Assembly (NCBI GenBank): GCA_965203095.1
Contig: OZ241877.1
Span: 416,001 to 480,000 of the forward strand
Source of the DNA: Bdellovibrionales bacterium
Lineage (GTDB): Bacteria > Bdellovibrionota > Bdellovibrionia > Bdellovibrionales > UBA1609
Direction of reading: 5' to 3'
DNA: 64,000 nucleotides
This document shows, one piece after another, positions 21,682 through 63,215 of the stretch. The notes under the pieces are model-generated. The model was not told where the DNA came from and searched no databases. It worked only from the letters and a program-made list of their open reading frames with translations. The translations under genes and the position numbers were made by a program. Each line of letters starts with the position of its first letter. The stretch's first letter is position 1.

Positions 21682-22233
21682 GTGCAACTTTTGCAGAAAG
21701 ATAAAACACAAAAATCCAAAGGCTTTAGCCTTATAGAGGTTTTGGCCAGTCTGCTTATCTTAGCCGGACTGCTTTCCATTATATCCCAGCTGTTTTATGG
21801 GAATAACCGGCGGATAAGAAAAGCCCGGCAGTTGGAAAAAATAGCCAGTCTTTTAGAGCTTAAAATGATCCAATTAGAGGAGGAATTTTCCGGCCCGAAA
21901 ATTGTCCAGTTGCCAAATCAGGATAAAGGAGAGTTTAAAAATGAGGAAAACTATTTTTGGAGTTACCAAACTCAAGCTATACTTTTGCCTTCCCCCAGGA
22001 TTTTGTTATCTCTATCCCGTCTTCCAGAATCAGAACTTTATCTCAAAATGGCTCAAATATTGACAGATATTTTGTCTGATAGCCTTGTGGAGCTTGAGCT
22101 TACAGTTCATTATAGGGGGAAGGGGAGGGAAGTGAGCTATTCCCTCAGCTCATATTTTGTCAATTATGAAACCGCTCCGGATTTTATTCTTAAATCTATA
22201 AGCCAGTTTTTGCCGGAAAGGGGAGCTTTGTAA
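21682..22233 (+). CDS. gspI: Type II secretion minor pseudopilin (GspI-like)
   Basis: KG|FSLIEVLASL prepilin motif; first gene of the I-J-K-L-M-N run. Confidence 0.75.
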   Translation: MQLLQKDKTQKSKGFSLIEVLASLLILAGLLSIISQLFYGNNRRIRKARQLEKIASLLELKMIQLEEEFSGPKIVQLPNQDKGEFKNEENYFWSYQTQAILLPSPRILLSLSRLPESELYLKMAQILTDILSDSLVELELTVHYRGKGREVSYSLSSYFVNYETAPDFILKSISQFLPERGAL

Positions 22234-23102
22234 TGCATTGTCCAACTCACTGTTTTTTTAAAAAATCAGCCCGATCCATTTATGGGATGACTCTTTTAGA
22301 AATGCTTTTGGCTCTTGGCCTTTTTGCTTTTATGTCTGTTTTTATTTCCCAAACTTTGAGACAAAGCTATCGCCATGCTCGCAAAGTGGGGCAGGATATT
22401 CAGTTTAAAAACTCCCTTTCCCATGTTTTGTCTTTGATCCGAAAGGATCTCCTCAGCACGGCTTATTTGTTAGATATCAATGCCAATTTTAACATTCACT
22501 TTCCCATTGAGGAAATGGCTGAAGAAGAGGAGAAAGAAGAACCTGCTAAAAAGGAAACTGCGGGCAAAGTGGAGCAACGATTCCCTGTTTTTTTAAATCC
22601 GCTTTTTATTTTTGAAGGGAGTAGCTCTGAGATGAGTTTTGTTTCCCATAGTTATTCTCAAAAAGCTTTAGATCCCTCTTCTCCTCAATGGGTGCGGATC
22701 CGCTATTCTGTTCAAAATTGTGATCTTGTGGAAGAAGGCTTGCTTGGCAAATGTTTGATTCGCTCAGTCTATCATTATTGGCAATCTATTGAAGAAAGGG
22801 AACCGGAAGAACAGGTCGTTTTGTTTAGAGCTTGGGATTCTTTGGAATTTTCCTATTCTGGAAAAAAAGAGCTTTTAGAATCAGAATGGAAAAGTGAATG
22901 GGAGGAGGAAGAAAGCCCGTCCCGTTCAGAAATTTTGCCTGTTCTTATAAAAATGGAAATGACAAAAAAGGATCGAGACAATAGCCTTTTATTTCCCGTA
23001 TCCCAGGATCTGTTGAGGAATTGGAATCCCAAAAGCAAGGCTTACCTCGGATTCCCTAAGAGAAAACCCCCTCAGCCCAAAAAAACGGAGCCTTCAAAGT
23101 GA
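22233..23102 (+). CDS. gspJ: Type II secretion minor pseudopilin (GspJ-like)
   Basis: YG|MTLLEMLLAL motif; LIRKDL; W..EW..LPV C-terminus. Confidence 0.75.
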   Translation: MHCPTHCFFKKSARSIYGMTLLEMLLALGLFAFMSVFISQTLRQSYRHARKVGQDIQFKNSLSHVLSLIRKDLLSTAYLLDINANFNIHFPIEEMAEEEEKEEPAKKETAGKVEQRFPVFLNPLFIFEGSSSEMSFVSHSYSQKALDPSSPQWVRIRYSVQNCDLVEEGLLGKCLIRSVYHYWQSIEEREPEEQVVLFRAWDSLEFSYSGKKELLESEWKSEWEEEESPSRSEILPVLIKMEMTKKDRDNSLLFPVSQDLLRNWNPKSKAYLGFPKRKPPQPKKTEPSK

Positions 23103-24316
23103 AACAGTCCCCTCTAAAAAAACAGTCCGGAGCGGCCCTGCTCATTATTTTAGCTGTGGTCAGCTTGATCCTACCCTTAGTCCAAGGGCTGTGGTTGGAT
23201 TCTCAAATTGAGTATCGCTTTAAGCAAAATCGCATGAGTGAATTGCAGGCCCAATATCAAGCCAAATCCGGCCTTTCTCTCAGTTTACTAAGAGTTTATA
23301 TTTTTAAAGGAATGGAAAAGTCTCTCCAAGGCCAATTCCAATCCATAGCTCTCCCCATTTTAGACAGAGTGTGGGCCTTTCCCTTTATGTGGCCCTTGCC
23401 CAAAGCCAAAGATCTTTTGGAAAGTGAAAAACAGGAACTGGAAAGCTTAAGCCAGCAGTCTTTTTTAAAAGGTTCTTATAAGGTTTTTATCACTCCAGAA
23501 GATGGCCTTTTAGATGTAAATGACTTGGCCAGCCCTCTTCCCTCTTTAAAGGAATGGACTTATGGGATATTTATGTCCCTTTTTACAGAGCTTTTAGAGG
23601 AAAAGCTCCAAGGAAAATACAGTCCCGAAGATATGAAAAAAACGCTCAATAATATTTCCGATTGGGTAGATCATGATAATAACAGCCAAAATGGAGGTTT
23701 AGAAGAGTTTGTAGAAGAGGGAAAAAAGCCTCTCAACCGCTCTTTTGTTGATGTGGAAGAGATTAAAAAAGTCCCTGGAATGAGTTTGGAGCTGTTTTCT
23801 GCCTTAACACCTTATATCACAGCTCATGGGGCTAAAGGCTTGAATATCAATTATGCCCCAAAGGGGCTTTTGCAAGCTCTCTTTTCAGAAGAGCTGGTGG
23901 AAGCTATTTTGTCTCGAACTCAAATGCATTCCGAATATTATGAGCCTTTTGCCAATAGGGAAAGTTTTTGTGATTTTGTTAGTGAATGGGCTGGTTCTTC
24001 TTTTTGTGAGGGGGAGGCTCAAGATCTCCTAACTTTTCTCCGTTTTGAGCGACCAGTGGCTTTTCGCATAAGCTCCCAAGGGAAATACAAGAAAAAATCT
24101 GTGCTTTTATCAGCCCTTTTGTTGGATCTGTCCTCATTGGCCTTGATCTATCAGGAGAGCTTATCTCGTGAAAAACAAAAACAAGAGGAGTTAGAGGAAA
24201 AGCCTACTGGTGAGTCCTCAACTGAAAAGCCCTCTCAGCAAAAGTCTGAACCATTGAAATTTGATTATTCCCATTTTAAATCTTTAGTTATAATGTATCT
24301 AAAAGGCCCTTTTTGA
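23099..24316 (+). CDS. gspK: Type II secretion protein GspK
   Basis: SG|AALLIIL without Glu5; LDVNDL, ISDWVDHD, EIKKVPGM, LNINYAP. Confidence 0.9.
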   Translation: MKQSPLKKQSGAALLIILAVVSLILPLVQGLWLDSQIEYRFKQNRMSELQAQYQAKSGLSLSLLRVYIFKGMEKSLQGQFQSIALPILDRVWAFPFMWPLPKAKDLLESEKQELESLSQQSFLKGSYKVFITPEDGLLDVNDLASPLPSLKEWTYGIFMSLFTELLEEKLQGKYSPEDMKKTLNNISDWVDHDNNSQNGGLEEFVEEGKKPLNRSFVDVEEIKKVPGMSLELFSALTPYITAHGAKGLNINYAPKGLLQALFSEELVEAILSRTQMHSEYYEPFANRESFCDFVSEWAGSSFCEGEAQDLLTFLRFERPVAFRISSQGKYKKKSVLLSALLLDLSSLALIYQESLSREKQKQEELEEKPTGESSTEKPSQQKSEPLKFDYSHFKSLVIMYLKGPF

Positions 24317-24422
24317 TAGAGTGAGGATGGAAGTGAGCTAAATTTTTAAATGAAAAGGGAGTATTTAATGGGTATTGAGGGCCATAATGGCTTTTGTCAG
24401 TTTTTAAGAAGAGGATAATCTT

Positions 24423-26093
24423 ATGGTGAGTGTTGGTATTTGTATTGGGCAAGGTCGCCTTTGTATAGCTGAATTGGACTTAAAAGGGGGCCGGCCCCGC
24501 AAACTCTCTTTTGAAGAGCTGTTTCCTGAAAACTCAGACTCTCAAAAAGAGTTGTGGGCTTTACTCTCCCAGCAGTTGGCTAAAATTAAAAAACGACGAA
24601 TGGGGCAAAATCTTCGTTTTTGTTATGGCATTCCCCAAAGCTTCGTCACTAGTTTTTTGGTGGAATTTCCTTTTAAAGAGAAATTTAAAATTTTAAAAAC
24701 CTTGCCCTATGAAATTGAGGACAAATCCCCCTTCCGTTCAAACAAAGTTTTTTTTGATGCCAGAATATGCCAGATAAAGGACAAAAACAAAAGCTCCGCC
24801 TTATGCTTTGTGACTCCGGAAGAGCATGTCCAGTCCTTTATTGAAAAGAGTCAATCTTTGGAAAAGTCAGCTTATCTCCTCAGTTGTGAAGGTTCTGCTT
24901 TGGCTAACCTTTTGGAATTTTGGGGCCGGCCTTTGTCTCAACCTCAAAACACAGGCTCCCTTTACATTTATCTTGGGGTGCATAACAGCCAGTGGTTTTT
25001 TTATAAAAATGGGCACTTACAAAATGTTTCTGTTTTGGATTGGTCTGCAAAGCCTATCATAAAAGAGATGGAAAAACTGTATAAGCTTTCAGAAAAAAAG
25101 GCTTGGGAAGAGTTTTTTAAAAAGTCCTTTATTTTGACTTCTAACAAAAACTGGACTAAAGAGCAGGTGTTTTTTTCTAACTTAATTAAAAAGCATATCC
25201 AATTATTGATTCCCCAATTGGATTTGCTTAAGCTTTCTCTTGGGGCTGAGCAGGGGCTTTCCATTTCATCAGCTGTTCTTTTTGGCCCCGGTTCCGCTAT
25301 AAAAAATTTAACTGCTTTTTTAACTGCACAAGTGCCCGTTCGTTTTTCTCGTCTTCAAAATCTCCCGGACTTTCCGGATTTTAATTTAGAAAGCCATCCC
25401 TCCTCTTGTATAGCTTTAGGCTTGGCTTTAGAGGGTTTAAAAAGATCTCCCTATTCGGGACTTAACTTTTTGCGATCGGTTAAAAGGGAGAGCTTTTCCT
25501 TTTATCCCAAGAAATGGAAAAAACTGGCTTTAGTTTTTGGGCTTTGTTTTTTTGTTTGGACCCTTTACTCTTTTGTAAGGATGCGGGAAAGCTCTAAAAT
25601 TTTAGATAAAGTGAAAGTAGCTTTTGTAGCTTATGGGAAAAAGATCGCTCGTTTACCGGAAAGCCAAGTTCATGAAGAATCTGTTAAATCTTTTTTAAAA
25701 AAGAGAATGACTGAAACAGAAAGTGAAAGAGCTGTTCGACAGAGGCTTAAACAGCCCCAGCCCATGGATTATCTTCAGAAAATCACTCAAAAATTAGGTT
25801 CGGCAGAGCCATGGGGTTTGAGCATTCACTACCTCAAAATTGATGGTCCTTCTGCAGAGATTCGGGGGCAAGTGAATCGATCCTCTTTGGAAAAATTTAA
25901 GTCGCATATTCAAAATTTAGCCAAAGGCCCTGTTAAAGAAGGGGAAAAAGGAGGGCTAAACCTTCCTAAAAAAAACAAAATTCAACCACTGGTAGAGGGG
26001 GATCCGCTTCAACAGGCAGAGGCTTTAGGGGATGGCCATGCTCCACAAAAGGTCTTTTTTTCTTACTCTTTTCAATTTAAAAAAGAGCTTTAA
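24423..26093 (+). CDS. gspL: GspL/PilM-like actin-fold platform protein with TM and periplasmic domain
   Basis: SVGICIG N-terminus, EFPFK..LPYEIED, FGPGS, ALGLALEG, one TM; position after gspK. Confidence 0.7.
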   Translation: MVSVGICIGQGRLCIAELDLKGGRPRKLSFEELFPENSDSQKELWALLSQQLAKIKKRRMGQNLRFCYGIPQSFVTSFLVEFPFKEKFKILKTLPYEIEDKSPFRSNKVFFDARICQIKDKNKSSALCFVTPEEHVQSFIEKSQSLEKSAYLLSCEGSALANLLEFWGRPLSQPQNTGSLYIYLGVHNSQWFFYKNGHLQNVSVLDWSAKPIIKEMEKLYKLSEKKAWEEFFKKSFILTSNKNWTKEQVFFSNLIKKHIQLLIPQLDLLKLSLGAEQGLSISSAVLFGPGSAIKNLTAFLTAQVPVRFSRLQNLPDFPDFNLESHPSSCIALGLALEGLKRSPYSGLNFLRSVKRESFSFYPKKWKKLALVFGLCFFVWTLYSFVRMRESSKILDKVKVAFVAYGKKIARLPESQVHEESVKSFLKKRMTETESERAVRQRLKQPQPMDYLQKITQKLGSAEPWGLSIHYLKIDGPSAEIRGQVNRSSLEKFKSHIQNLAKGPVKEGEKGGLNLPKKNKIQPLVEGDPLQQAEALGDGHAPQKVFFSYSFQFKKEL

Positions 26094-26125
26094 AAAAGCC
26101 GTTTTTTTATGAGAGGAAATACGAA

Positions 26126-26848
26126 ATGAAGGAAAAAGCAAAAAATATAAAAAAACAGATTTTCGAACTTTGGAAAGGTTTTGAAAGTCGGCTTTTAGAA
26201 AGCGACAGCTTTAATATTTTAAGGGAAAAATATCAGTCTTTAGATGTCCTTCACCAAAAACTGTTACAACGTGTGTTAGCACTCTTTTTGCTTTTTGCCC
26301 TATTGGCTTGGCCACTTTATTGGTTTTTCTCTTCTGTTTTTTATTGGGGGGAATTTAAGAGCACACAAGATCTCAACTCACAGATGTTAAAAATGAGGAA
26401 AACTCCATCTATTTTTCGTTATTCCAAATCGAATCTCAAAAACAAAATAGAGAGAATTGTCAAAAAATACACTTCATCTGAATTTCAAATTAAAGATAAA
26501 AAATCTTTATTCTTAAAAAACAGCTCTATTTACCAAGTGGATTTTAATATTCGTTTAAATCATCTCAATATTAAACAAGTGGCTCGCTTAGGGGCAGAGT
26601 TAAACAGGCTCTCTCAATCCCGCTTGAGTGCTATCACTATGGAGGAAAACAAAAAATACCCTCAACATTATGATGTGGCTTATAGGCTTTCTGCTTTTAT
26701 TTCAGAAACTAAAAGAGGGACTTTTCGCCCAAAAACCCCCCGGACCATCCCCTTAAAGGGCAAAAGTTTAAAGGGGGAAAAATCAGCTCTTCCTAAAAGA
26801 AAAAAACGGAAGAAGAGAACAAAACCTAAAGGGCCACAGGTTGAGTAA
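26126..26848 (+). CDS. gspM: GspM-like protein
   Basis: Single TM followed by a periplasmic domain; position between L and N. Confidence 0.55.
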   Translation: MKEKAKNIKKQIFELWKGFESRLLESDSFNILREKYQSLDVLHQKLLQRVLALFLLFALLAWPLYWFFSSVFYWGEFKSTQDLNSQMLKMRKTPSIFRYSKSNLKNKIERIVKKYTSSEFQIKDKKSLFLKNSSIYQVDFNIRLNHLNIKQVARLGAELNRLSQSRLSAITMEENKKYPQHYDVAYRLSAFISETKRGTFRPKTPRTIPLKGKSLKGEKSALPKRKKRKKRTKPKGPQVE

Positions 26849-26873
26849 AGTAATAGAATAAAAGGACTAAAAT

Positions 26874-27830
26874 ATGTTTTATGTTTTAAAAAAACTCATT
26901 GCTTTTGTTTGGAGACAAAAAGCAAAACTAATTCTTGTTTTTGTGTTTGCAGTTTTGTTTTTTTTCATCCGTTTTCCTTGGAATGATCTGTTGGAAAAGA
27001 AGGCTAAAGATTTTCAAAAAAAAATCCCTTCTACCCTGCAAACAGATTTTGAAAATATCCACCTTAAACTTATTCCCCCCGGCTTAGAGTTTGAAGATTT
27101 ATTTATTCATTATAAGGGGAAAAGCCTGACATTTCCCTCTATAGGCATTTTTCCTGCTTTTAAAGAGTGGTTGACATTAAAACCGGCATGGCGGGTTAAG
27201 GCACATCATAAAAATTCTTCTCTTTCCTTTGTTGTTTGGAAAAAGAAAAAGCCTTTAAAAGAAGGGCCTCCTGATTCTTCAATAGATATTTATTTTATTA
27301 AAGGCAATGCTCCTTTTTGGGAGTTAGAGGTTTTAAACAACTTATTTAAGGTGAAAATGTCAGGATTGGCCAGAGCTTTTTTTGATTATAAAGGTTCGCT
27401 TAAAAAGTTTGAGGAGGTTATAGCTTTTTTGAATTTGAAAGGGACAAATGTTCAGCTGTCGGGAACAGAGTTTAAAACTGCATTAGGCCCTTTAAATTTT
27501 CCTCCTATGAAATGGAAGGAAATAGAAATAGCCTCCCATTTAAAAGAGGGGGAATTGGTTTTTAAAACTTTTCGTTTAGGAGCTGTGGGAGATGATTTCA
27601 TTGTTCGGCTGAAGGGGAGCGGGGCTTTGTTATTCTCTTATGGAAAAGTTCGCTTAAACTCTTATGACATTCAACTGCAAATGGATGTGGATAAGGCCCT
27701 TTCAATAGGCATATTGGATTTGATGTTTGCCAATTTTAAAGAGGACAAAGGCTCTTTTTATAGATACAGCCTCCGTTTGAGGGGGCAAGGGCATCGGGTC
27801 CCTAATATGGAAAAACTACCAGAATTTTAA
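26874..27830 (+). CDS. gspN: Type II secretion protein GspN (deltaproteobacterial type)
   Basis: TM ending IRFPWNDL, beta-rich body, C-terminal LRGQGHRVP. Confidence 0.7.
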   Translation: MFYVLKKLIAFVWRQKAKLILVFVFAVLFFFIRFPWNDLLEKKAKDFQKKIPSTLQTDFENIHLKLIPPGLEFEDLFIHYKGKSLTFPSIGIFPAFKEWLTLKPAWRVKAHHKNSSLSFVVWKKKKPLKEGPPDSSIDIYFIKGNAPFWELEVLNNLFKVKMSGLARAFFDYKGSLKKFEEVIAFLNLKGTNVQLSGTEFKTALGPLNFPPMKWKEIEIASHLKEGELVFKTFRLGAVGDDFIVRLKGSGALLFSYGKVRLNSYDIQLQMDVDKALSIGILDLMFANFKEDKGSFYRYSLRLRGQGHRVPNMEKLPEF

Positions 27831-56309: not shown

Positions 56310-56725
56310 GTTGTTCCTGCCTTGAGTGGGAATCCAGAAAAGCCTGTTCTCGTAAAAACAGGGGTTTTTCTCGCAAAAAATCTACATTTAATGGATCGCA
56401 CAAGCAAAAAGTCCAGCTTGTTCGGGACGGCAATACCTTGGACCCTCACCGCTGGCTTTTGCTTGTGCGATAAAGAACAGAGATTTTTTATAGGCAATTT
56501 TTTAGTTTTTTTGCCTGATCTGGCTTTTTTTCTAAAGTTTTTTAAACAAAAAACCGATAGGTCTTTATAATGAAGAAAAATAGACCCTTGGAAAGTTTGC
56601 CAAAAAGCTCCCTAAGCTTTTTAGCTCCCGTGAAAACGGGAATCCAGAAATCTTTTCCGCAAAAACTTATTGAAAAGTCTTATTCCTTAGCTTTTTGCCC
56701 AAAGGCCATTTCATTTCGGGACGGT
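56310..56725. repeat. Repeat cluster: REP-like units, full core hairpin (56395-56471) and a truncated composite copy (56623-56725)
   Basis: Core identical to the 1220 and 21531 copies; 56650-56725 is the approximate reverse complement of 4025-4100. Confidence 0.8.
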
Positions 56726-56732
56726 AAATTTA

Positions 56733-56750
56733 CCCCCCCCCCCCCCCCCC
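56733..56750. repeat. C18 homopolymer, candidate slipped-strand phase-variation tract
   Basis: 18 consecutive C in an AT-rich genome, lying between ATG 56570 and the prepilin motif of the fibre gene. Confidence 0.8.
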
Positions 56751-56840
56751 GAAAAACGCTGTAAATTCAATAGTTTAAAGCATTTTAAACACAAAAAAAC
56801 TTTTCTTTTAAATAATAAAGGCTTTTCTATTACCGGTGTT

Positions 56841-59288
56841 ATGGTGGCCTCCACTATTGGGGTTATAGCCATGACGGGCATGGCTAAACATGCGGCTTTG
56901 ATAGCCCAACAGCAAAAACAACTTAATCAGGAAAGGGAGCTGAATGCTTTTTGGGAAAGGTTTGGGACTGAAACTGATTGTAAGGAAACAATAAAAGGCT
57001 GGCTCAATCAGAATACAGCTCCTAACTATCCAGCCCCTACAAGTGCTCAAAAAGCTAAGTTAGCAGAGGGGACTGAAGGCAATGAGATAGAAATCAAAAT
57101 CATAAAGAAGTCAGCCAGCTCTAATCTTTTAGATGTTCATGACACTACAAACATTTTTAGGCGATATGGTTTTACTCCCCGCTTTTTTGTTTTGAGATGT
57201 AATCCAGCAGACAATGGGGGGAGTTGTGATTGTCGGACTTCTGCTCATACCTATTCAGGCGGGGCTTGTAAAAAAACTTGGATGCTTATCCCTGGTGTTC
57301 AAAGGGGAATGACTTTTATTAGAGGAAGGGTTTTGAATTTAGATATTGAGTGGTCGTCTGCTCCTGATAGCACTTATACTAATTTTGATTGCACTAAAAT
57401 AGGAACAACAGGGGGCAAAAACCGCTGTTATAAAGCGGAGGCAACTGGGAGCAGAAGAACCCTTGCTGGATGTGGTAGCACACAATCACTTGGTGGCACA
57501 GGCACAACCGCTTTTGGTAATGATGCGGGCCTGTCGGCTACTATCACGGGGTCTGAAAATAATTTTTTTGGTAAAGGAGTTGGTGGAAGTGCCACAGTGG
57601 CTGGGCACTACAATACTTTTTTAGGATTTGCTGGATATAGGGCCAAAGTGGACGGGACATATAATAATTTTTATGGGAACCAGGCTGGCAGAGAGTCCAC
57701 AGTGGCAGGCGGGCACAATCTTTTTATTGGGTATTATGCAGGGAATAAGGCTACAGTTAGCGGGGATGGCAATCATTTTGTTGGCAGACAAGCTGGCTAT
57801 CAAGCCACTTTGGCCGGGAGTGCCAGTCATTTTTTTGGTAATCAAGCGGGATATAAAACAACGGTGACTTCAGGTTCAAGCAACACTTTTGTTGGCACTA
57901 ATGCTGGCAGAGAAGCCACAATCTCAGCCGGTGGTAATCATTTTTTTGGGGACAATGCTGGGAAAAAAGCCACAGTGAGCGGAGGACAAAATCATTTTAT
58001 TGGTGATCATGCCGGCCAATCCGCTACAGTGGCCGGGGCGAGAAATACCTTCTTAGGGGACAGTGCGGGATGGAATGCGGATATAAGAAGCGGGGCCGAT
58101 GGCAATGTTTTTATTGGGCAGAGTGCGGGAAAAAAAGATCATGGCACAGGCACAGGCGGTTATATATCAGGGGATTTGAATGTCTTTTTAGGGCATGCCG
58201 CCGGCCGGACTGCTAAAGTTTCAGGTGGGTATAATACCTTTTTGGGAGCTGGGGCTGGGGACAAAGCGACTGTCTCAACAAATGCCAACGGCAATACTTT
58301 TTTAGGGCAATATGCGGGGAGCAATCAGTCCTTTTCAAGGAGTGGTGGAACTTATATCCGGGGCAATCAGATCAATCTCAGATCTCCCCGCTCTCAAACA
58401 CATGACGGGATTTTTCTCAATGCAGATAAAAAGATAGAAATCAAAGCTCCCGATGTAAAAATAAAAGCTCAAGGATGGTTATGTCCTGCTGGACAAGTCC
58501 TTAGAGGATTTGACACTTCTGGGAATAAAAATTGTGTGGCCACTGGAGGCACAGGCTGGAAACAAACTTGTTCAGGGGGGCAATACCTAAGAGGTTTTAA
58601 CAGCTCAGGGAATAAGGTTTGTTTTGGAGGGTGTCCAGTCCATCAGAGTTGGAATGGGAGTCAATGTGCGAATCGTTGCCCCACGGGGCAAGCTTGGTCT
58701 GCCACTTGTGGAAATGTATGTATCCCGGTATGTGGGACAGGTCGAATCCGGAACAGGGAATGTGGTAGTTGTAGGGATCTCCGTTGTGGAGATCCAGGAT
58801 ATAACGGACCCTGTGGCCCATCATCCAAAGTTTATAAAAAGAATATTCGTCCCTTTAATGATATGGAAAAGGCTTTGAAGGACATTTTAGAGACTCCCCT
58901 ATTCACTTATTATTTTAAGGATAAAAACAATTTTCCTAAAAAGAAAAGAATGGGAGTGATAGCGGAGGACTTGCCAAAAAACTTACAGCTTAAAGGAAAG
59001 CCTATTGCCCCGGACTGGCCCTCTATCTATGGGACATTGTGGGCCGGGATAAAAGCCCTTCATTCTAAGATAGAAACAAAATTCAAAACTCTCAATTCCA
59101 CAATAGAGGCAAAGTTTAAAGCCCTCAGCAAAACCAACAATGAGTTTAAAAAAGAGTTGGCCAATACTAAACAGGAACTAAAATCAGCCAATGAAAAAAT
59201 AGACAGCCTCTCAAAAGAATTAAAAGAACTAAAGTCCAGCTTTGAGAAAAAAGGACTAAACAAAATAGACAATCAGCCGATAAGATAA
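56841..59288 (+). CDS. Trimeric fibre/adhesin with beta-roll repeats and C-terminal peptidase S74 intramolecular chaperone; true start probably 56570 via the poly-C tract
   Basis: ~15 N-x-F-x-G-x-x-A-G repeats, two C..GQ.LRGF.SSG-type shaft motifs, Cys-rich segment, SSKVYKKNI..MGVIAED..WAGIKAL S74 signature, coiled coil; in-frame upstream NNKG|FSITGVMVA. Confidence 0.85.
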   Translation: MVASTIGVIAMTGMAKHAALIAQQQKQLNQERELNAFWERFGTETDCKETIKGWLNQNTAPNYPAPTSAQKAKLAEGTEGNEIEIKIIKKSASSNLLDVHDTTNIFRRYGFTPRFFVLRCNPADNGGSCDCRTSAHTYSGGACKKTWMLIPGVQRGMTFIRGRVLNLDIEWSSAPDSTYTNFDCTKIGTTGGKNRCYKAEATGSRRTLAGCGSTQSLGGTGTTAFGNDAGLSATITGSENNFFGKGVGGSATVAGHYNTFLGFAGYRAKVDGTYNNFYGNQAGRESTVAGGHNLFIGYYAGNKATVSGDGNHFVGRQAGYQATLAGSASHFFGNQAGYKTTVTSGSSNTFVGTNAGREATISAGGNHFFGDNAGKKATVSGGQNHFIGDHAGQSATVAGARNTFLGDSAGWNADIRSGADGNVFIGQSAGKKDHGTGTGGYISGDLNVFLGHAAGRTAKVSGGYNTFLGAGAGDKATVSTNANGNTFLGQYAGSNQSFSRSGGTYIRGNQINLRSPRSQTHDGIFLNADKKIEIKAPDVKIKAQGWLCPAGQVLRGFDTSGNKNCVATGGTGWKQTCSGGQYLRGFNSSGNKVCFGGCPVHQSWNGSQCANRCPTGQAWSATCGNVCIPVCGTGRIRNRECGSCRDLRCGDPGYNGPCGPSSKVYKKNIRPFNDMEKALKDILETPLFTYYFKDKNNFPKKKRMGVIAEDLPKNLQLKGKPIAPDWPSIYGTLWAGIKALHSKIETKFKTLNSTIEAKFKALSKTNNEFKKELANTKQELKSANEKIDSLSKELKELKSSFEKKGLNKIDNQPIR

Positions 59289-59313: not shown

Positions 59314-59868
59314 ATGAAACAAATTATTTTAATCCTTTTATGGATTGCAATCCCAGCTCAGAGCATTGCAATCCCCTTTGATAAAAAAAATTTAAAATAT
59401 AAAAAATCTTTAAAAAAAAGTGATCTCCACTATAAGAAATTAAGAGGTTCACTTCATGATAAGAAACAAACAAAAAAACCAGTTGATCCAACAAAACAAG
59501 CAGAGCTTATTAAGCAAATAAGGAAAGGCAAAAAAGATTTGGCGGGAGCAGACTTGAGAGGGGCAAACTTAGTGAGAACGAACTTACAGAATACAACCTT
59601 GAATTGGGCGGACTTTGAGGGGGCGATCTTAATAAGGGCGAACTTGAGAAGAGCATACATGGAACATGCAAACTTGAGAGGGGCAAAACTGCATGGGGCG
59701 GACTTTGAGGGGGCGATCTTGACAGGGGCGGACTTTAAGGGGGCGATCTTGACAGGGGCAAAATTTAAAGGAACAAACCTAATTTTTGCTTATATAGACT
59801 CAAAATATCGTGACATGATTATGGCCAGCGGAGCATTGAACACAGACAGGATTAACTGGTGGGATTAA
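59314..59868 (+). CDS. Secreted pentapeptide-repeat protein, array copy A
   Basis: Signal peptide, A(D/N)(L/F)xx repeats, shared caps KQAELI and YRDMIM.SGALNTD.INW; GGAGG RBS. Confidence 0.9.
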   Translation: MKQIILILLWIAIPAQSIAIPFDKKNLKYKKSLKKSDLHYKKLRGSLHDKKQTKKPVDPTKQAELIKQIRKGKKDLAGADLRGANLVRTNLQNTTLNWADFEGAILIRANLRRAYMEHANLRGAKLHGADFEGAILTGADFKGAILTGAKFKGTNLIFAYIDSKYRDMIMASGALNTDRINWWD

Positions 59869-59977
59869 GCCTCTAAACCCTCTATTTTTCTCTCTAATCT
59901 TTATCTATATCAAAAGCCTCAGCTATAAAACAAGCTCAGCCCCTTGTGTGAAAAAATTACAATAGACCCTCTAATTC

Positions 59978-60006
59978 TTTACTTTCCCGGACAATCCTGC
60001 TATAAC
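59978..60006 (+). promoter_or_regulatory. Sigma70-type promoter repeated before array copies B-F (leaderless)
   Basis: TTTACT-17 nt-TATAAC with extended -10 TG; 7-8 nt to the ATG; no Shine-Dalgarno; near-identical upstream of 60694, 61298, 61847 and 62442. Confidence 0.7.
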
Positions 60007-60014
60007 CAAACACA

Positions 60015-60548
60015 ATGAAAATACTATTTAGCCTTATCCTTTTAATGAGCTTGCCGGCTTTTTCTGAAAACACGGAGCCAGTTGATCACACAAAACAAGC
60101 AGAATTGATTAACCAAATCAGACAAGGGGAAAAAGACTTGAGATGGGCAGACTTGAGAGGGGCGAACTTGAAAGGGGCGGACTTATCAAAGACAGACTTG
60201 AGATGGGCAGACTTGAGAGGGGCGAACTTGAAAGGGGCGGACTTATCAAAGACAGACTTGAGATGGGCAGACTTGAGATGGGCAGACTTGAGAGGGGCGA
60301 ACTTGAAAGGGGCGGACTTATCAAAGACAGACTTGAGATGGGCAGACTTAAGAAAGGCAGAACTGGAGGGAGCAAGCTTGTCTAGGGCAGACTTAACAAA
60401 TGCAGACTTGAGATGGGCAGGCTTGGAGGGGGCAACCCTGTATAGGGCAGATTTGACAGAGGCTTTTATGAGCTTAACCTATAAATATCGTGACATGATT
60501 ATGCACAGCGGAGCATTGAACACAGACAAGATTAACTGGATGGATTAA
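60015..60548 (+). CDS. Secreted pentapeptide-repeat protein, copy B
   Basis: Signal peptide, LRWADLRGANLKGADLSKTD repeats, shared caps. Confidence 0.92.
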   Translation: MKILFSLILLMSLPAFSENTEPVDHTKQAELINQIRQGEKDLRWADLRGANLKGADLSKTDLRWADLRGANLKGADLSKTDLRWADLRWADLRGANLKGADLSKTDLRWADLRKAELEGASLSRADLTNADLRWAGLEGATLYRADLTEAFMSLTYKYRDMIMHSGALNTDKINWMD

Positions 60549-60693
60549 GCCTCAGACCCCTCTGTTTTTCTCTCTAATCTTTATCTATATCAAAAGCCTC
60601 AGCTATAAAACAAGCTCAGCCCCTTGTGTGAAAAAATTACAATAGACCCTCTAATTCTTTACTTTCCCGGACAATCCTGCTATAACAAACACA

Positions 60694-61152
60694 ATGAAAA
60701 TACTATTTAGCCTTATCCTTTTAATGAGCTTGCCGGCTTTTTCTGAAAACACGGAGCCAGTTGATCACACAAAACAAGCAGAATTGATTAACCAAATCAG
60801 ACAAGGGGAAAAAGACTTGAGATGGGCAGACTTGAGAGGGGCGAACTTGAAAGGGGCGGACTTATCAAAGACAGACTTGAGATGGGCAGACTTGAGAGGG
60901 GCGAACTTGAAAGGGGCGGACTTATCAAAGACAGACTTGAGATGGGCAGACTTAAGAAAGGCAGAACTGGAGGGAGCAAGCTTGTCTAGGGCAGACTTAA
61001 CAAATGCAGACTTGAGATGGGCAGGCTTGGAGGGGGCAACCCTGTATAGGGCAGATTTGACAGAGGCTTTTATGAGCTTAACCTATAAATATCGTGACAT
61101 GATTATGCACAGCGGAGCATTGAACACAGACAAGATTAACTGGATGGATTAA
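60694..61152 (+). CDS. Secreted pentapeptide-repeat protein, copy C
   Basis: Same protein as copy B minus 25 aa of repeat. Confidence 0.92.
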   Translation: MKILFSLILLMSLPAFSENTEPVDHTKQAELINQIRQGEKDLRWADLRGANLKGADLSKTDLRWADLRGANLKGADLSKTDLRWADLRKAELEGASLSRADLTNADLRWAGLEGATLYRADLTEAFMSLTYKYRDMIMHSGALNTDKINWMD

Positions 61153-61297
61153 GCCTCAGACCCCTCTATTTTTCTCTCTAATCTCTATCAATATCAAAGC
61201 CCTCAGCTATAAAACAAGCTCTACCCTTTGTGTGAAAAAATTACAATAGACCCTCTAATTCTTTACTTTCCCGGACAATCCTGCTATAAGACAACCA

Positions 61298-61765
61298 ATG
61301 AAAATACTATTAAGCATTATCCTTTTAATGAACCAGACGGCTTTTTCTGAAAACCCGGAGACAGTTGATCCCACAAAACAAGCAGAATTGATTGAACAAA
61401 TCAGGCAAGGGAAAAAAGACTTAACAGAGGCAAACTTGCAAAAAGCAAACTTGTATAAGGCAGACCTGACATTTGCAAACTTGACAAGGGCAGACTTAAC
61501 AGAGGGATTTTTGATAGGGGGATTTTTGATAGGGGCAAATTTGATAGAGACAAACCTGCAAATGGCTAACCTTGCGGGGGCAAAGTTGATGGGGGCAGAC
61601 TTGACAAAGGCAAACTTGACAAGAGCAATCTTGTATAAAGCAACCTTGACAGGGGCAGACTTTAAAGAGGCTAACTTATTGTATGCTTATATAGACTCAA
61701 AATATCGTGACATGATTATGGACAGCGGAGCATTGAACACAGACAAGATTAACTGGATGGATTAA
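61298..61765 (+). CDS. Secreted pentapeptide-repeat protein, copy D
   Basis: Same caps, divergent repeat core. Confidence 0.92.
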   Translation: MKILLSIILLMNQTAFSENPETVDPTKQAELIEQIRQGKKDLTEANLQKANLYKADLTFANLTRADLTEGFLIGGFLIGANLIETNLQMANLAGAKLMGADLTKANLTRAILYKATLTGADFKEANLLYAYIDSKYRDMIMDSGALNTDKINWMD

Positions 61766-61846
61766 GCTTTTGCCCTTTTTGTGAAAAATTTACAAAAGAC
61801 TCTCTAATTCTTTACTTTCCCGGACAATCCTGCTATAAGACAACCA

Positions 61847-62305
61847 ATGAAAATACTATTAAGCATTATCCTTTTAATGAGCTTGCCGGCTTTTTCTGAA
61901 AACACGGAGCCAGTTGATCACACAAAACAAGCAGAATTGATTAACCAAATCAGACAAGGGGAAAAAGACTTGAGATGGGCAGACTTGAGAGGGGCGAACT
62001 TGAAAGGGGCGGACTTATCAAAGACAGACTTGAGATGGGCAGACTTGAGAGGGGCGAACTTGAAAGGGGCGGACTTATCAAAGACAGACTTGAGATGGGC
62101 AGACTTAAGAAAGGCAGAACTGGAGGGAGCAAGCTTGTCTAGGGCAGACTTACAAACGGCGGACTTGAGATGGGCAGGCTTGGAGGGGGCAACCCTGTAT
62201 AGGGCAGATTTGACAGAGGCTTTTATGAGCTTAACCTATAAATATCGTGACATGATTATGCACAGCGGAGCATTGAACACAGACAAGATTAACTGGAGGG
62301 ATTAA
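61847..62305 (+). CDS. Secreted pentapeptide-repeat protein, copy E
   Basis: D-like 5' end, C-like body. Confidence 0.92.
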   Translation: MKILLSIILLMSLPAFSENTEPVDHTKQAELINQIRQGEKDLRWADLRGANLKGADLSKTDLRWADLRGANLKGADLSKTDLRWADLRKAELEGASLSRADLQTADLRWAGLEGATLYRADLTEAFMSLTYKYRDMIMHSGALNTDKINWRD

Positions 62306-62441
62306 GCCTCTAAACCCTCTATTTTTCTCTCTAATCTTTATCTATATCAAAAGCCTCAGCTATAAAACAAGCTCTGCCCTTTGTGTGAAAAATTTACAAT
62401 AGACTTTACTTTCCCGGACAATTCTGCTATACCCCTACACA

Positions 62442-63215
62442 ATGAACCTACTATTAAGCCTTATTCTTTTAATGAGCTTGCCGGCTTTTGCTAACTGCCG
62501 GAATGTTTTTGAGCCTGATTTAGAACCCGATAAAAAACAGGTAGAGCTGATTAAAAAAATCAGACAAGGGAAAAAAAACTTGGCAAGGGCGAACTTGAGA
62601 GAGGCGAAATTGGCGGGAGCGGACTTGATATTGGCAAAATTGACAGGGGCAGACTTGAGAAAGGCAGACTTGTCAGAGGCGAAATTGTCAGGGGCGAAAT
62701 TGGAGAGGGCGATCTTGCAAGGGGCGAACTTAGAAAGGGCGAACTTGACAAGGGCAGACTTGGGAAGGGCAGACTTGTATAGGGCAGACTTGTATAGGGC
62801 AGACTTGAGAGGGGCATTCTTGATAGGGGCAGACTTGAGAAGAGCAATCCTGACAGAGGCAAACTTGAGAGGAGCAGACTTGAGAAGAGCAATCCTGACA
62901 GAGGCAAACTTGAGAGGAGCAGACTTGATAGGGGCAGACTTGAGAAGAGCAATCCTGACAGAGGCAAACTTGATAGGAGCAGACTTGAGAAGAGCAATCC
63001 TGACAGAGGCAAACTTGATAGGAGCAGACTTGAGAAGAGCAATCCTGACAGAGGCAAACTTGAGAGGAGCAGACTTGAGAGGAGCTATCATAGACGAACA
63101 TTATCGTGACATGATTATGAACAGCGGAGCATTGAACATAGGCTTGATTAACTGGGTGGATAAGAAAAAGAAAGACTTGGAAGGGGCAGACATGAGAATA
63201 CCAATTAGGCCCTAA
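62442..63215 (+). CDS. Secreted pentapeptide-repeat protein, copy F (longest)
   Basis: Signal peptide, five LRRAILTEAN units, YRDMIMNSGALN cap. Confidence 0.92.
   Translation: MNLLLSLILLMSLPAFANCRNVFEPDLEPDKKQVELIKKIRQGKKNLARANLREAKLAGADLILAKLTGADLRKADLSEAKLSGAKLERAILQGANLERANLTRADLGRADLYRADLYRADLRGAFLIGADLRRAILTEANLRGADLRRAILTEANLRGADLIGADLRRAILTEANLIGADLRRAILTEANLIGADLRRAILTEANLRGADLRGAIIDEHYRDMIMNSGALNIGLINWVDKKKKDLEGADMRIPIRP

Follow-up and report, generated by a model that had tools for sequence, protein, structure and literature searches.

A run of 18 cytosines (C18) in the predicted leader of a pilin-like fibre gene is read here, with a probability of roughly 0.84, as a slipped-strand translational phase-variation switch that chooses among fibre tips. 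The tract lies at positions 56733-56750 of the 64-kb stretch analysed, hereafter the window, which corresponds to C1:416001-480000 of genome G000 (1.80 Mb in two contigs, C1 and C2; 90% complete). This reading is preferred on two grounds: chance does not account for so long a run, and the tract recurs in sister genes at lengths that leave some in frame and others out; as in other contingency loci, a long repeat stands in the 5' coding region and both frame states occur among homologues. A contingency locus of a known, textbook mechanism is thus well supported, and its setting is a variant one: a disposable class III leader, four pilin-S74 fibres with variable tips, a FliA-type promoter, and a phylum, apparently the Bdellovibrionota, for which the open-access papers listed included none on simple repeats or phase variation. 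The placement in this phylum is suggested by the nearest named relatives of the TsaD protein, which share 68% and 64% identity with it and bear labels cut short after Oli and Bde, taken to mean Oligoflexia and Bdellovibrionales; a fumarase scan of genome contigs gave distant relatives only. The elements of the 5' region are, with the basis of each in brackets:

56328..56516, no strand assigned: dispersed intergenic repeats 5' of the promoter, of a palindromic GGGAATCCAG type and a second family (BLASTN, motif matches)
56533..56560, + strand: predicted FliA (sigma28)-type promoter motif, TAAAG-N16-CCGATA(G) (motif, spacing, consensus)
56570..56732, + strand: start ATG with the initial 54 codons of the disposable prepilin leader, made up mostly of repeat-element sequence (shared ATG position, kept frame)
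56733..56750, + strand: C18 tract, the proposed switch, out of frame as assembled and in frame at 3n+2 (14, 17, 20) (sequence)
56751..56822, + strand: basic end of the leader, 24 codons of which the last is Gly, with a predicted prepilin-peptidase cut at 56822/56823, the G|F site (sequence)
56762..56764, + strand: TAA closing the 64-aa OFF product at C18 (frame analysis)

The tract is the sole C or G run longer than 7 within the window. In the frame of the fibre, a TAG at 56688-56690 is followed by no ATG, GTG or TTG until the ATG at 56841, where the database gene call (P0001, 815 aa) begins, and from the tract to the G|F site the rarer table-11 start codons CTG, ATT, ATC and ATA are likewise missing. 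The ATG at 56570 opens a frame of 64 codons that runs through C18 and ends at the TAA listed above. When all tract lengths from 6 to 23 were recomputed, the full protein was obtained at 8, 11, 14, 17, 20 and 23 only, with 905 aa at C17 and 906 aa at C20, reading KHKKTFLLNNKG|FSITGV across the cut. The original prediction had described a called open reading frame (ORF) starting in mid-helix with no usable codon back to the TAG, a frame from 56570 stopping at 56764, and a full fibre at C17 or C20; all three were verified base for base. Both called OFF copies, P0001 and P0002, begin inside the hydrophobic helix; gene callers truncate such copies, so these proteins are missed as pilins.

Runs of this length stand apart from the background of contig C1, on which nine C/G runs of at least 11 were counted against 0.45 expected and eight of at least 14 against 0.006 expected, the expectation being a geometric extrapolation from the C1 runs of 5-8. 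The counts drop about fourfold per base up to 9, and the nine runs of 11-22 form a separate tail. A prepilin motif lies in frame within 100 codons downstream of four of these nine runs, against 12 of 30,000 random positions.

The body of the fibre gene is present in four intact and three broken copies:

C1:981082: intact paralogue, C14, in frame, 943 aa
C1:1223165: intact paralogue, C17, in frame, 887 aa
Window 56733-56750: intact paralogue, C18, out of frame
C1:191449: intact paralogue, C22, out of frame
C1:113725: broken copy without leader ATG and with a second frameshift
C1:17908: broken copy, cut off after the tract
C1:1229472-1230972: broken copy without promoter, its 5' half missing, with a frameshift near imperfect C repeats

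All four intact paralogues carry the tract 23 codons before the G|F site. Identity to the four paralogous bodies reaches 82-94% for the S74 part and 78-87% for the pilin part, is 67-85% over the shaft and falls to 36-56% in the Cys-rich tip. Since the tips diverge while the pilin and S74 parts are conserved, switching would change the tip that is displayed. The 3' half preserved at C1:1229472-1230972 lies 4 kb downstream from the C17 copy and might act as a tip-sequence donor. The anatomy of the single locus had been described correctly beforehand, and what had been missed was this family of intact and broken copies with different tips.

Evidence that the leader is translated came from its frame. 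Five loci share the position of the ATG, which lies 139, 163, 190, 271 and 334 nt 5' of the tract, all of them 1 modulo 3, and the differences in leader length are due to insertions of the dispersed palindromic repeats. In three well-aligned pairs, 10 of 10 leader gaps relative to this locus are multiples of 3 (two of the gaps are probably one insertion split by the aligner, and the paralogues are not independent); among the gaps of the upstream flank two of six are. Shuffled leaders were free of stops in 0.2-4% of cases each, the leaders again not being independent of one another. In a pattern search of the genome for ORFs with a prepilin motif, 16 of 18 had an in-frame ATG, GTG or TTG before the motif and the two without were the C18 and C22 loci; the pattern overlooks some pilin-like genes, such as a GspK-like one at window position 23099.

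The FliA-type motif, TAAAG-N16-CCGATAG, ends 9 nt 5' of the ATG at 56570 and 172 nt 5' of the tract. The form TAAA-N17-CCGATA occurs 31 times in the genome, against 7-18 occurrences at eight other spacings, and with TAAAG the favoured spacing occurs 18 times against 0-6 at the others. An ATG follows 6-13 nt behind 16 of the 31 motifs, five of them at fibre-type leaders and 11 at unrelated genes. Motif and spacing at 56533-56560 match the attack-phase FliA consensus of Bdellovibrio bacteriovorus, TTAAG-N16-CCGATA (PMC3627812), and a fliA gene matches above its cut-off, so that both the -35/-10 motif at N16 and the sigma factor by which a FliA regulon is recognised are present. A sigma70 scan, with three sites against 1.3 expected, was uninformative. 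Position 56570, already proposed as the start by the original prediction, is likely the true one; it is backed by the promoter motif just 5' of it, the kept leader frame and the lack of a start codon between the tract and the G|F site. Its mRNA is probably leaderless or nearly so because of the short distance from motif to ATG, given where sigma28 transcripts start relative to their promoters.

No flagellin was found in the genome, at its 90% completeness, and because of this FliA appears to serve non-flagellar genes only. As an observation in its own right, fliA is kept despite the missing flagellin along with about 20-30 candidate FliA-type promoters, most of them followed by an ATG within 6-13 nt. 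The repeats at 56328-56516 have many BLASTN matches genome-wide, with 112 and 81 motif matches on C1. At C1:1560063-1561142, too, the 5' end of a gene includes dispersed palindromic repeats in frame, as the fibre leaders do, an arrangement that recalls the Rickettsia palindromic elements.

Related genomes, whose comparison had been named as a check on the original prediction, show the same tract design. The fibre was searched for in 61 genomes, of which 12 gave a match, eight of these within the genus, and C tracts in prepilin leaders were found in five of ten genomes of the genus (G000, G005, G007, G008 and G009). In frame are 7 of the 18 tract-prepilin loci (two of four in G000, four of six in G007, one of two in G008, none of one in G005 and none of five in G009), which is near the one third expected of random states for such tracts (PMC5472700). 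In the four other genomes, tracts of 9-26 C occupy the equivalent functional position within leaders of unrelated sequence; since the leader sequences differ between genomes, the tract was probably gained more than once. The closest parallel is G008 with its four pilin-S74 genes: a C9 keeps one of them in frame, a C12 puts another out of frame, and the remaining two have no long tract but a nearby ATG; tract-less homologues in general have an ordinary start near the motif. No S74 match was found in the tract-bearing genes of G007 and G009. In P0007, a homologue from the database, the long prepilin leader contains a stretch of poly-Pro, seen at the protein level only. In G053, from another family of the same order, G11-G13 runs lie inside five paralogous prepilin-like ORFs, one in frame and four out. 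The earlier proposal of an ON/OFF switch has thus gained support from paralogues in both frames, the conserved leader frame, the promoter motif and the congeneric genomes.

The protein downstream of the tract was divided into the following parts, all encoded on the + strand:

56823..57422: pilin-like N-terminal part, with the FSITGVMV stretch, a long helix and an alpha/beta head (AlphaFold, Atlas)
57450..58307: Gly-rich repeat shaft, N-x-F-x-G-x-x-A-G, a predicted beta-solenoid (AlphaFold)
58470..58814: Cys-rich variable tip just 5' of the S74 cut site (paralogue identity)
58821..59288: Peptidase_S74 chaperone (S-S-K-V-Y-K) and C-terminal coiled coil (PF13884)

At C17 the leader comprises 84 residues and is followed by G|FSITGVMV and a hydrophobic stretch of about 22 residues with a Lys at +23. 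This agrees with the class III signal, defined by a hydrophilic leader of variable length that ends in Gly or Ala, a subsequent stretch of 20-25 mainly hydrophobic residues and cleavage on the cytoplasmic side (PMC10191384). Position +5 is Gly and not Glu; the definition does not require Glu5, which is frequent but not universal in pilins and is missing from tip-capping subunits (same source). The AlphaFold model of the N-terminal part has a helix at 3-47 and an alpha/beta head and is of low confidence (mean predicted local distance difference test, pLDDT, 63); among its neighbours in the Atlas are Bdellovibrionota clusters of PilV-like proteins (score 0.92, PF07963 in 42% of members). The shaft was modelled at a pLDDT of about 90 across most of mature residues 270-430, and Foldseek gave for it weak likeness to tailspikes and beta-helices only, at E 0.015 or worse; the tip was poorly predicted. 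The S74 domain matched PF13884 at E 6e-7 (30.1 bits against a cut-off of 22), and its S-S-K-V-Y-K retains the Ser and Lys of the SDxxxK motif, with Ser replacing Asp at position 2. No NCBIfam family covered the fibre protein at 1e-5, a sequence search of the PDB gave one chance-level coiled-coil match, and three distant loci matched the S74 region in the JGI metagenomes, in which the tract junction pattern had no match. Marine metagenome X5 yielded partial and divergent pieces only, and a small share fell to sponge metagenome X6. The machinery for a pilin is encoded in the genome, namely a PilD prepilin peptidase, seven T2SSE-family ATPases and four secretins.

From these parts the following course may be proposed. 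FliA would transcribe the fibre gene from 56533-56560, and translation would start at the ATG at 56570; with 3n+2 C's the ribosome would read the 84-residue leader into the fibre, and at other lengths it would stop within 4-9 codons. Prepilin peptidase would remove the entire leader at G|F, as its motif suggests, so that neither the tract length nor the inserted repeats would ever appear in the mature protein. The mature product would be a modular minor pilin without Glu5, probably placed at the tip of a type IV filament, and the S74 chaperone, to judge from its family, would trimerise the fibre and cut itself off. The length of the tract would vary between cells of one population, and replication slippage would switch the four intact paralogues independently, giving up to 16 tip combinations for putative contact with prey, host or phage.

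Several results weigh against this proposal. Among contig pieces from four of the six runs listed, no listed piece bridges the C tract, and among the indels listed (12 of 18) none falls at it, the data being contigs only. Both mutS and mutL are encoded, so slippage is not aided by loss of these genes. The fourth leader pair aligns poorly, with three of seven gaps multiples of 3, though the net difference is still a multiple of 3. All five G009 loci are out of frame, and three of them have an ATG 4 codons before G|F by which the tract could be bypassed; in three loci of G007 a TTG stands after the tract and before the motif. The FliA motif in its strict form was found ahead of only 4 of the 14 tract-prepilin loci of the congeneric genomes, and ahead of none of seven tract-less ones. 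On the protein side, the Pfam N_methyl match is weak (E 0.28, below the cut-off), and neither Foldseek nor VIA-align gave a significant match for the full or the N-terminal model, with no pilin among the matches listed (best Z 3.6), although such a missing match is no evidence against the fold.

Three other explanations were considered. Long homopolymers are the commonest residual error in long-read assemblies, and C18 is one base away from C17, so the gene might be constitutive, its true tract fixed in frame at 17 or 20 and the C18 an error of the assembly consensus. This is improbable. The paralogous tracts (14, 17, 18 and 22) differ by up to 8 bases within near-identical flanks, which indicates real slippage at some time, and in the five assemblies, which include one of 340 contigs, out-of-frame tracts make up 11 of the 18 loci; moreover, window genes with internal A/T runs of 9-10 still give long intact ORFs. 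An error at one locus would also leave the switch reading of the family standing. Whether most copies really have C18 and are OFF, or the assembly consensus is wrong by one base, is a separate matter; the former is considered fairly probable.

The second explanation, that translation starts downstream of the tract, at 56841 or at a non-canonical codon, and that the tract is untranslated and either neutral or tunes transcription, has the database call at 56841 and the three G009 loci with an ATG just before the motif in its favour, and in another genome of the order the -35 box is separated from the -10 box by G runs. A start at 56841, however, would cost the protein its cleavage site and six residues at the front of its hydrophobic stretch; no table-11 start is available from tract to G|F, the promoter motif stands directly before the ATG at 56570, and an untranslated leader would not hold its frame. 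Such a downstream start is accordingly given little credence. Least credible is that the out-of-frame copies are decaying duplicates and the tract a mutational hot spot silencing surplus genes one way. Three further copies are indeed broken, yet the copy in the window keeps its promoter motif, leader frame, S74 motif and an open body of 845 codons, and the recurrence of C tracts at the same place in the unrelated leaders of four other genomes points to selection for the tract. The phase-variation switch is thus retained as the preferred explanation.

Among known systems, the closest parallel to this switch is found in Neisseria, where pilC1 and pilC2 undergo frameshift phase variation through a poly-G tract in the sequence for the signal peptide (PMC13017665). 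Common to both is a homopolymer in the signal-peptide coding region of paralogous genes for type IV pilus tip adhesins. PilC, however, is not a pilin (PMC10191384) and has a G tract. In the present case the protein is of pilin type, the tract consists of C's within its long class III leader, and there are four intact paralogues whose tips diverge; the cell that carries them is uncultured and Bdellovibrionota-like. The fibre also resembles modular minor pilins, such as PilB and PilC of S. sanguinis, in which an adhesive module is grafted on a pilin (PMC10191384): a variable leader is removed in the cytoplasm, the tip subunit lacks Glu5, and the trimeric CofB belongs to the same group. Unlike in S. 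sanguinis, the module here is a phage-tail-like solenoid with an S74 chaperone. As to the promoter, the FliA attack-phase regulon of B. bacteriovorus likewise has T[TA]AAG-N16-CCGATA before surface-protein genes (PMC3627812); the difference is that no flagellin was found here.

The mosaic adhesive trimer (MAT) fibres of Bdellovibrio bacteriovorus, 13 of 21 of which end in an S74 domain with SDxxxK (PMC10769870), share with the present proteins paralogy, variable tips, the S74 end and the phylum. Membership of the MAT family was nevertheless rejected. In place of the N-terminus that defines MATs there is a prepilin motif and a 45-residue helix, as judged on the low-confidence model, and the capping-loop motif V-G-G/N-x-x-x-P-x-x-x-L had no match in the 821-aa mature protein; a comparison with solved MAT chains produced nothing at E 1 or better. 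The main text of PMC10769870 never uses the word pilin, and no passage on phase variation was seen in it. A term search of PMC11656739 gave no S74, pilin or phase variation, and no report of pilin-S74 fusions was seen among the open-access papers listed. Reduced Bdellovibrionota of sponges are described as lacking type IV pili, unlike the genome studied here (PMC9944714).

Recognition of prey by predators depends on fibre repertoires such as the MATs, and the same kind of switch would here gate variable-tip fibres in relatives of bacterial predators. Phase variation has mostly been studied in animal pathogens. If the reading is true, the recognition apparatus would be phase-variable in a predatory phylum; cells bearing different tips would coexist in one population, the range of prey or hosts would be a heritable stochastic trait, and tract lengths in metagenomes would be a direct readout of the tips selected in a given sample. 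It would also point to a way of anchoring MAT-like fibres and to a means by which a predator or symbiont could hedge its range of targets. The chances are about even for the broader picture, that of a genome-reduced, flagellum-less Bdellovibrionota lineage whose chimeric pilin-S74 fibres, phage-tail-like trimers set into the tip of a type IV filament, recognise prey or host, with tips picked by independent poly-C switches in a cleaved leader and with a FliA programme whose flagellar role has been lost.

Downstream of the fibre gene, a tandem array of near-identical pentapeptide-repeat genes with signal peptides extends over 59314..63215 on the + strand (ORFs; three genes scanned). Pentapeptide-repeat genes similarly follow five fibre loci and a truncated copy. 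Elsewhere in the window, at 21682-27830, lies a pseudopilin cluster resembling that of type II secretion, whose GspK- and GspN-like genes scored under the cut-off, and a CpoB-like gene of the genome matches the Bd0635 model, also below cut-off.

Other long tracts were noted on C1. At C1:1606315-1606335 (+) a C21 run begins 25 nt after an ATG and is out of frame with a 301-codon ORF with a signal peptide, which would be in frame at 17, 20 and 23; an in-frame TTG follows the tract, and the locus is a second candidate switch. Genes resembling this ORF and carrying C tracts occur in G007 (L149) and G009 (L168). At C1:1414917-1414934 (-) the same leader and C18 cassette precedes an 815-aa gene, presumably with a TadG-like start; at C18 the leader frame ends at a TAG 18 nt before the ATG of that gene and in the same frame, an arrangement in which translational coupling or a former fusion is possible. 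A G14 run at C1:1064072-1064085 and a G11 run at C1:1561419-1561429 are both in frame, within intact ORFs of 325 and 199 aa, respectively.

In G053 (L211-L221), 13 of whose 29 tracts were analysed, eight intergenic tracts of G11-G23 were seen, seven of them behind a TTGACA and before a TAGCAT-like box, as in switches of the promoter-spacer type. Contig C2 (17 kb) consists of tandem 1.1-kb units that lack long ORFs and all contain a G run of 9-13; it resembles satellite DNA of another organism that entered the bin.

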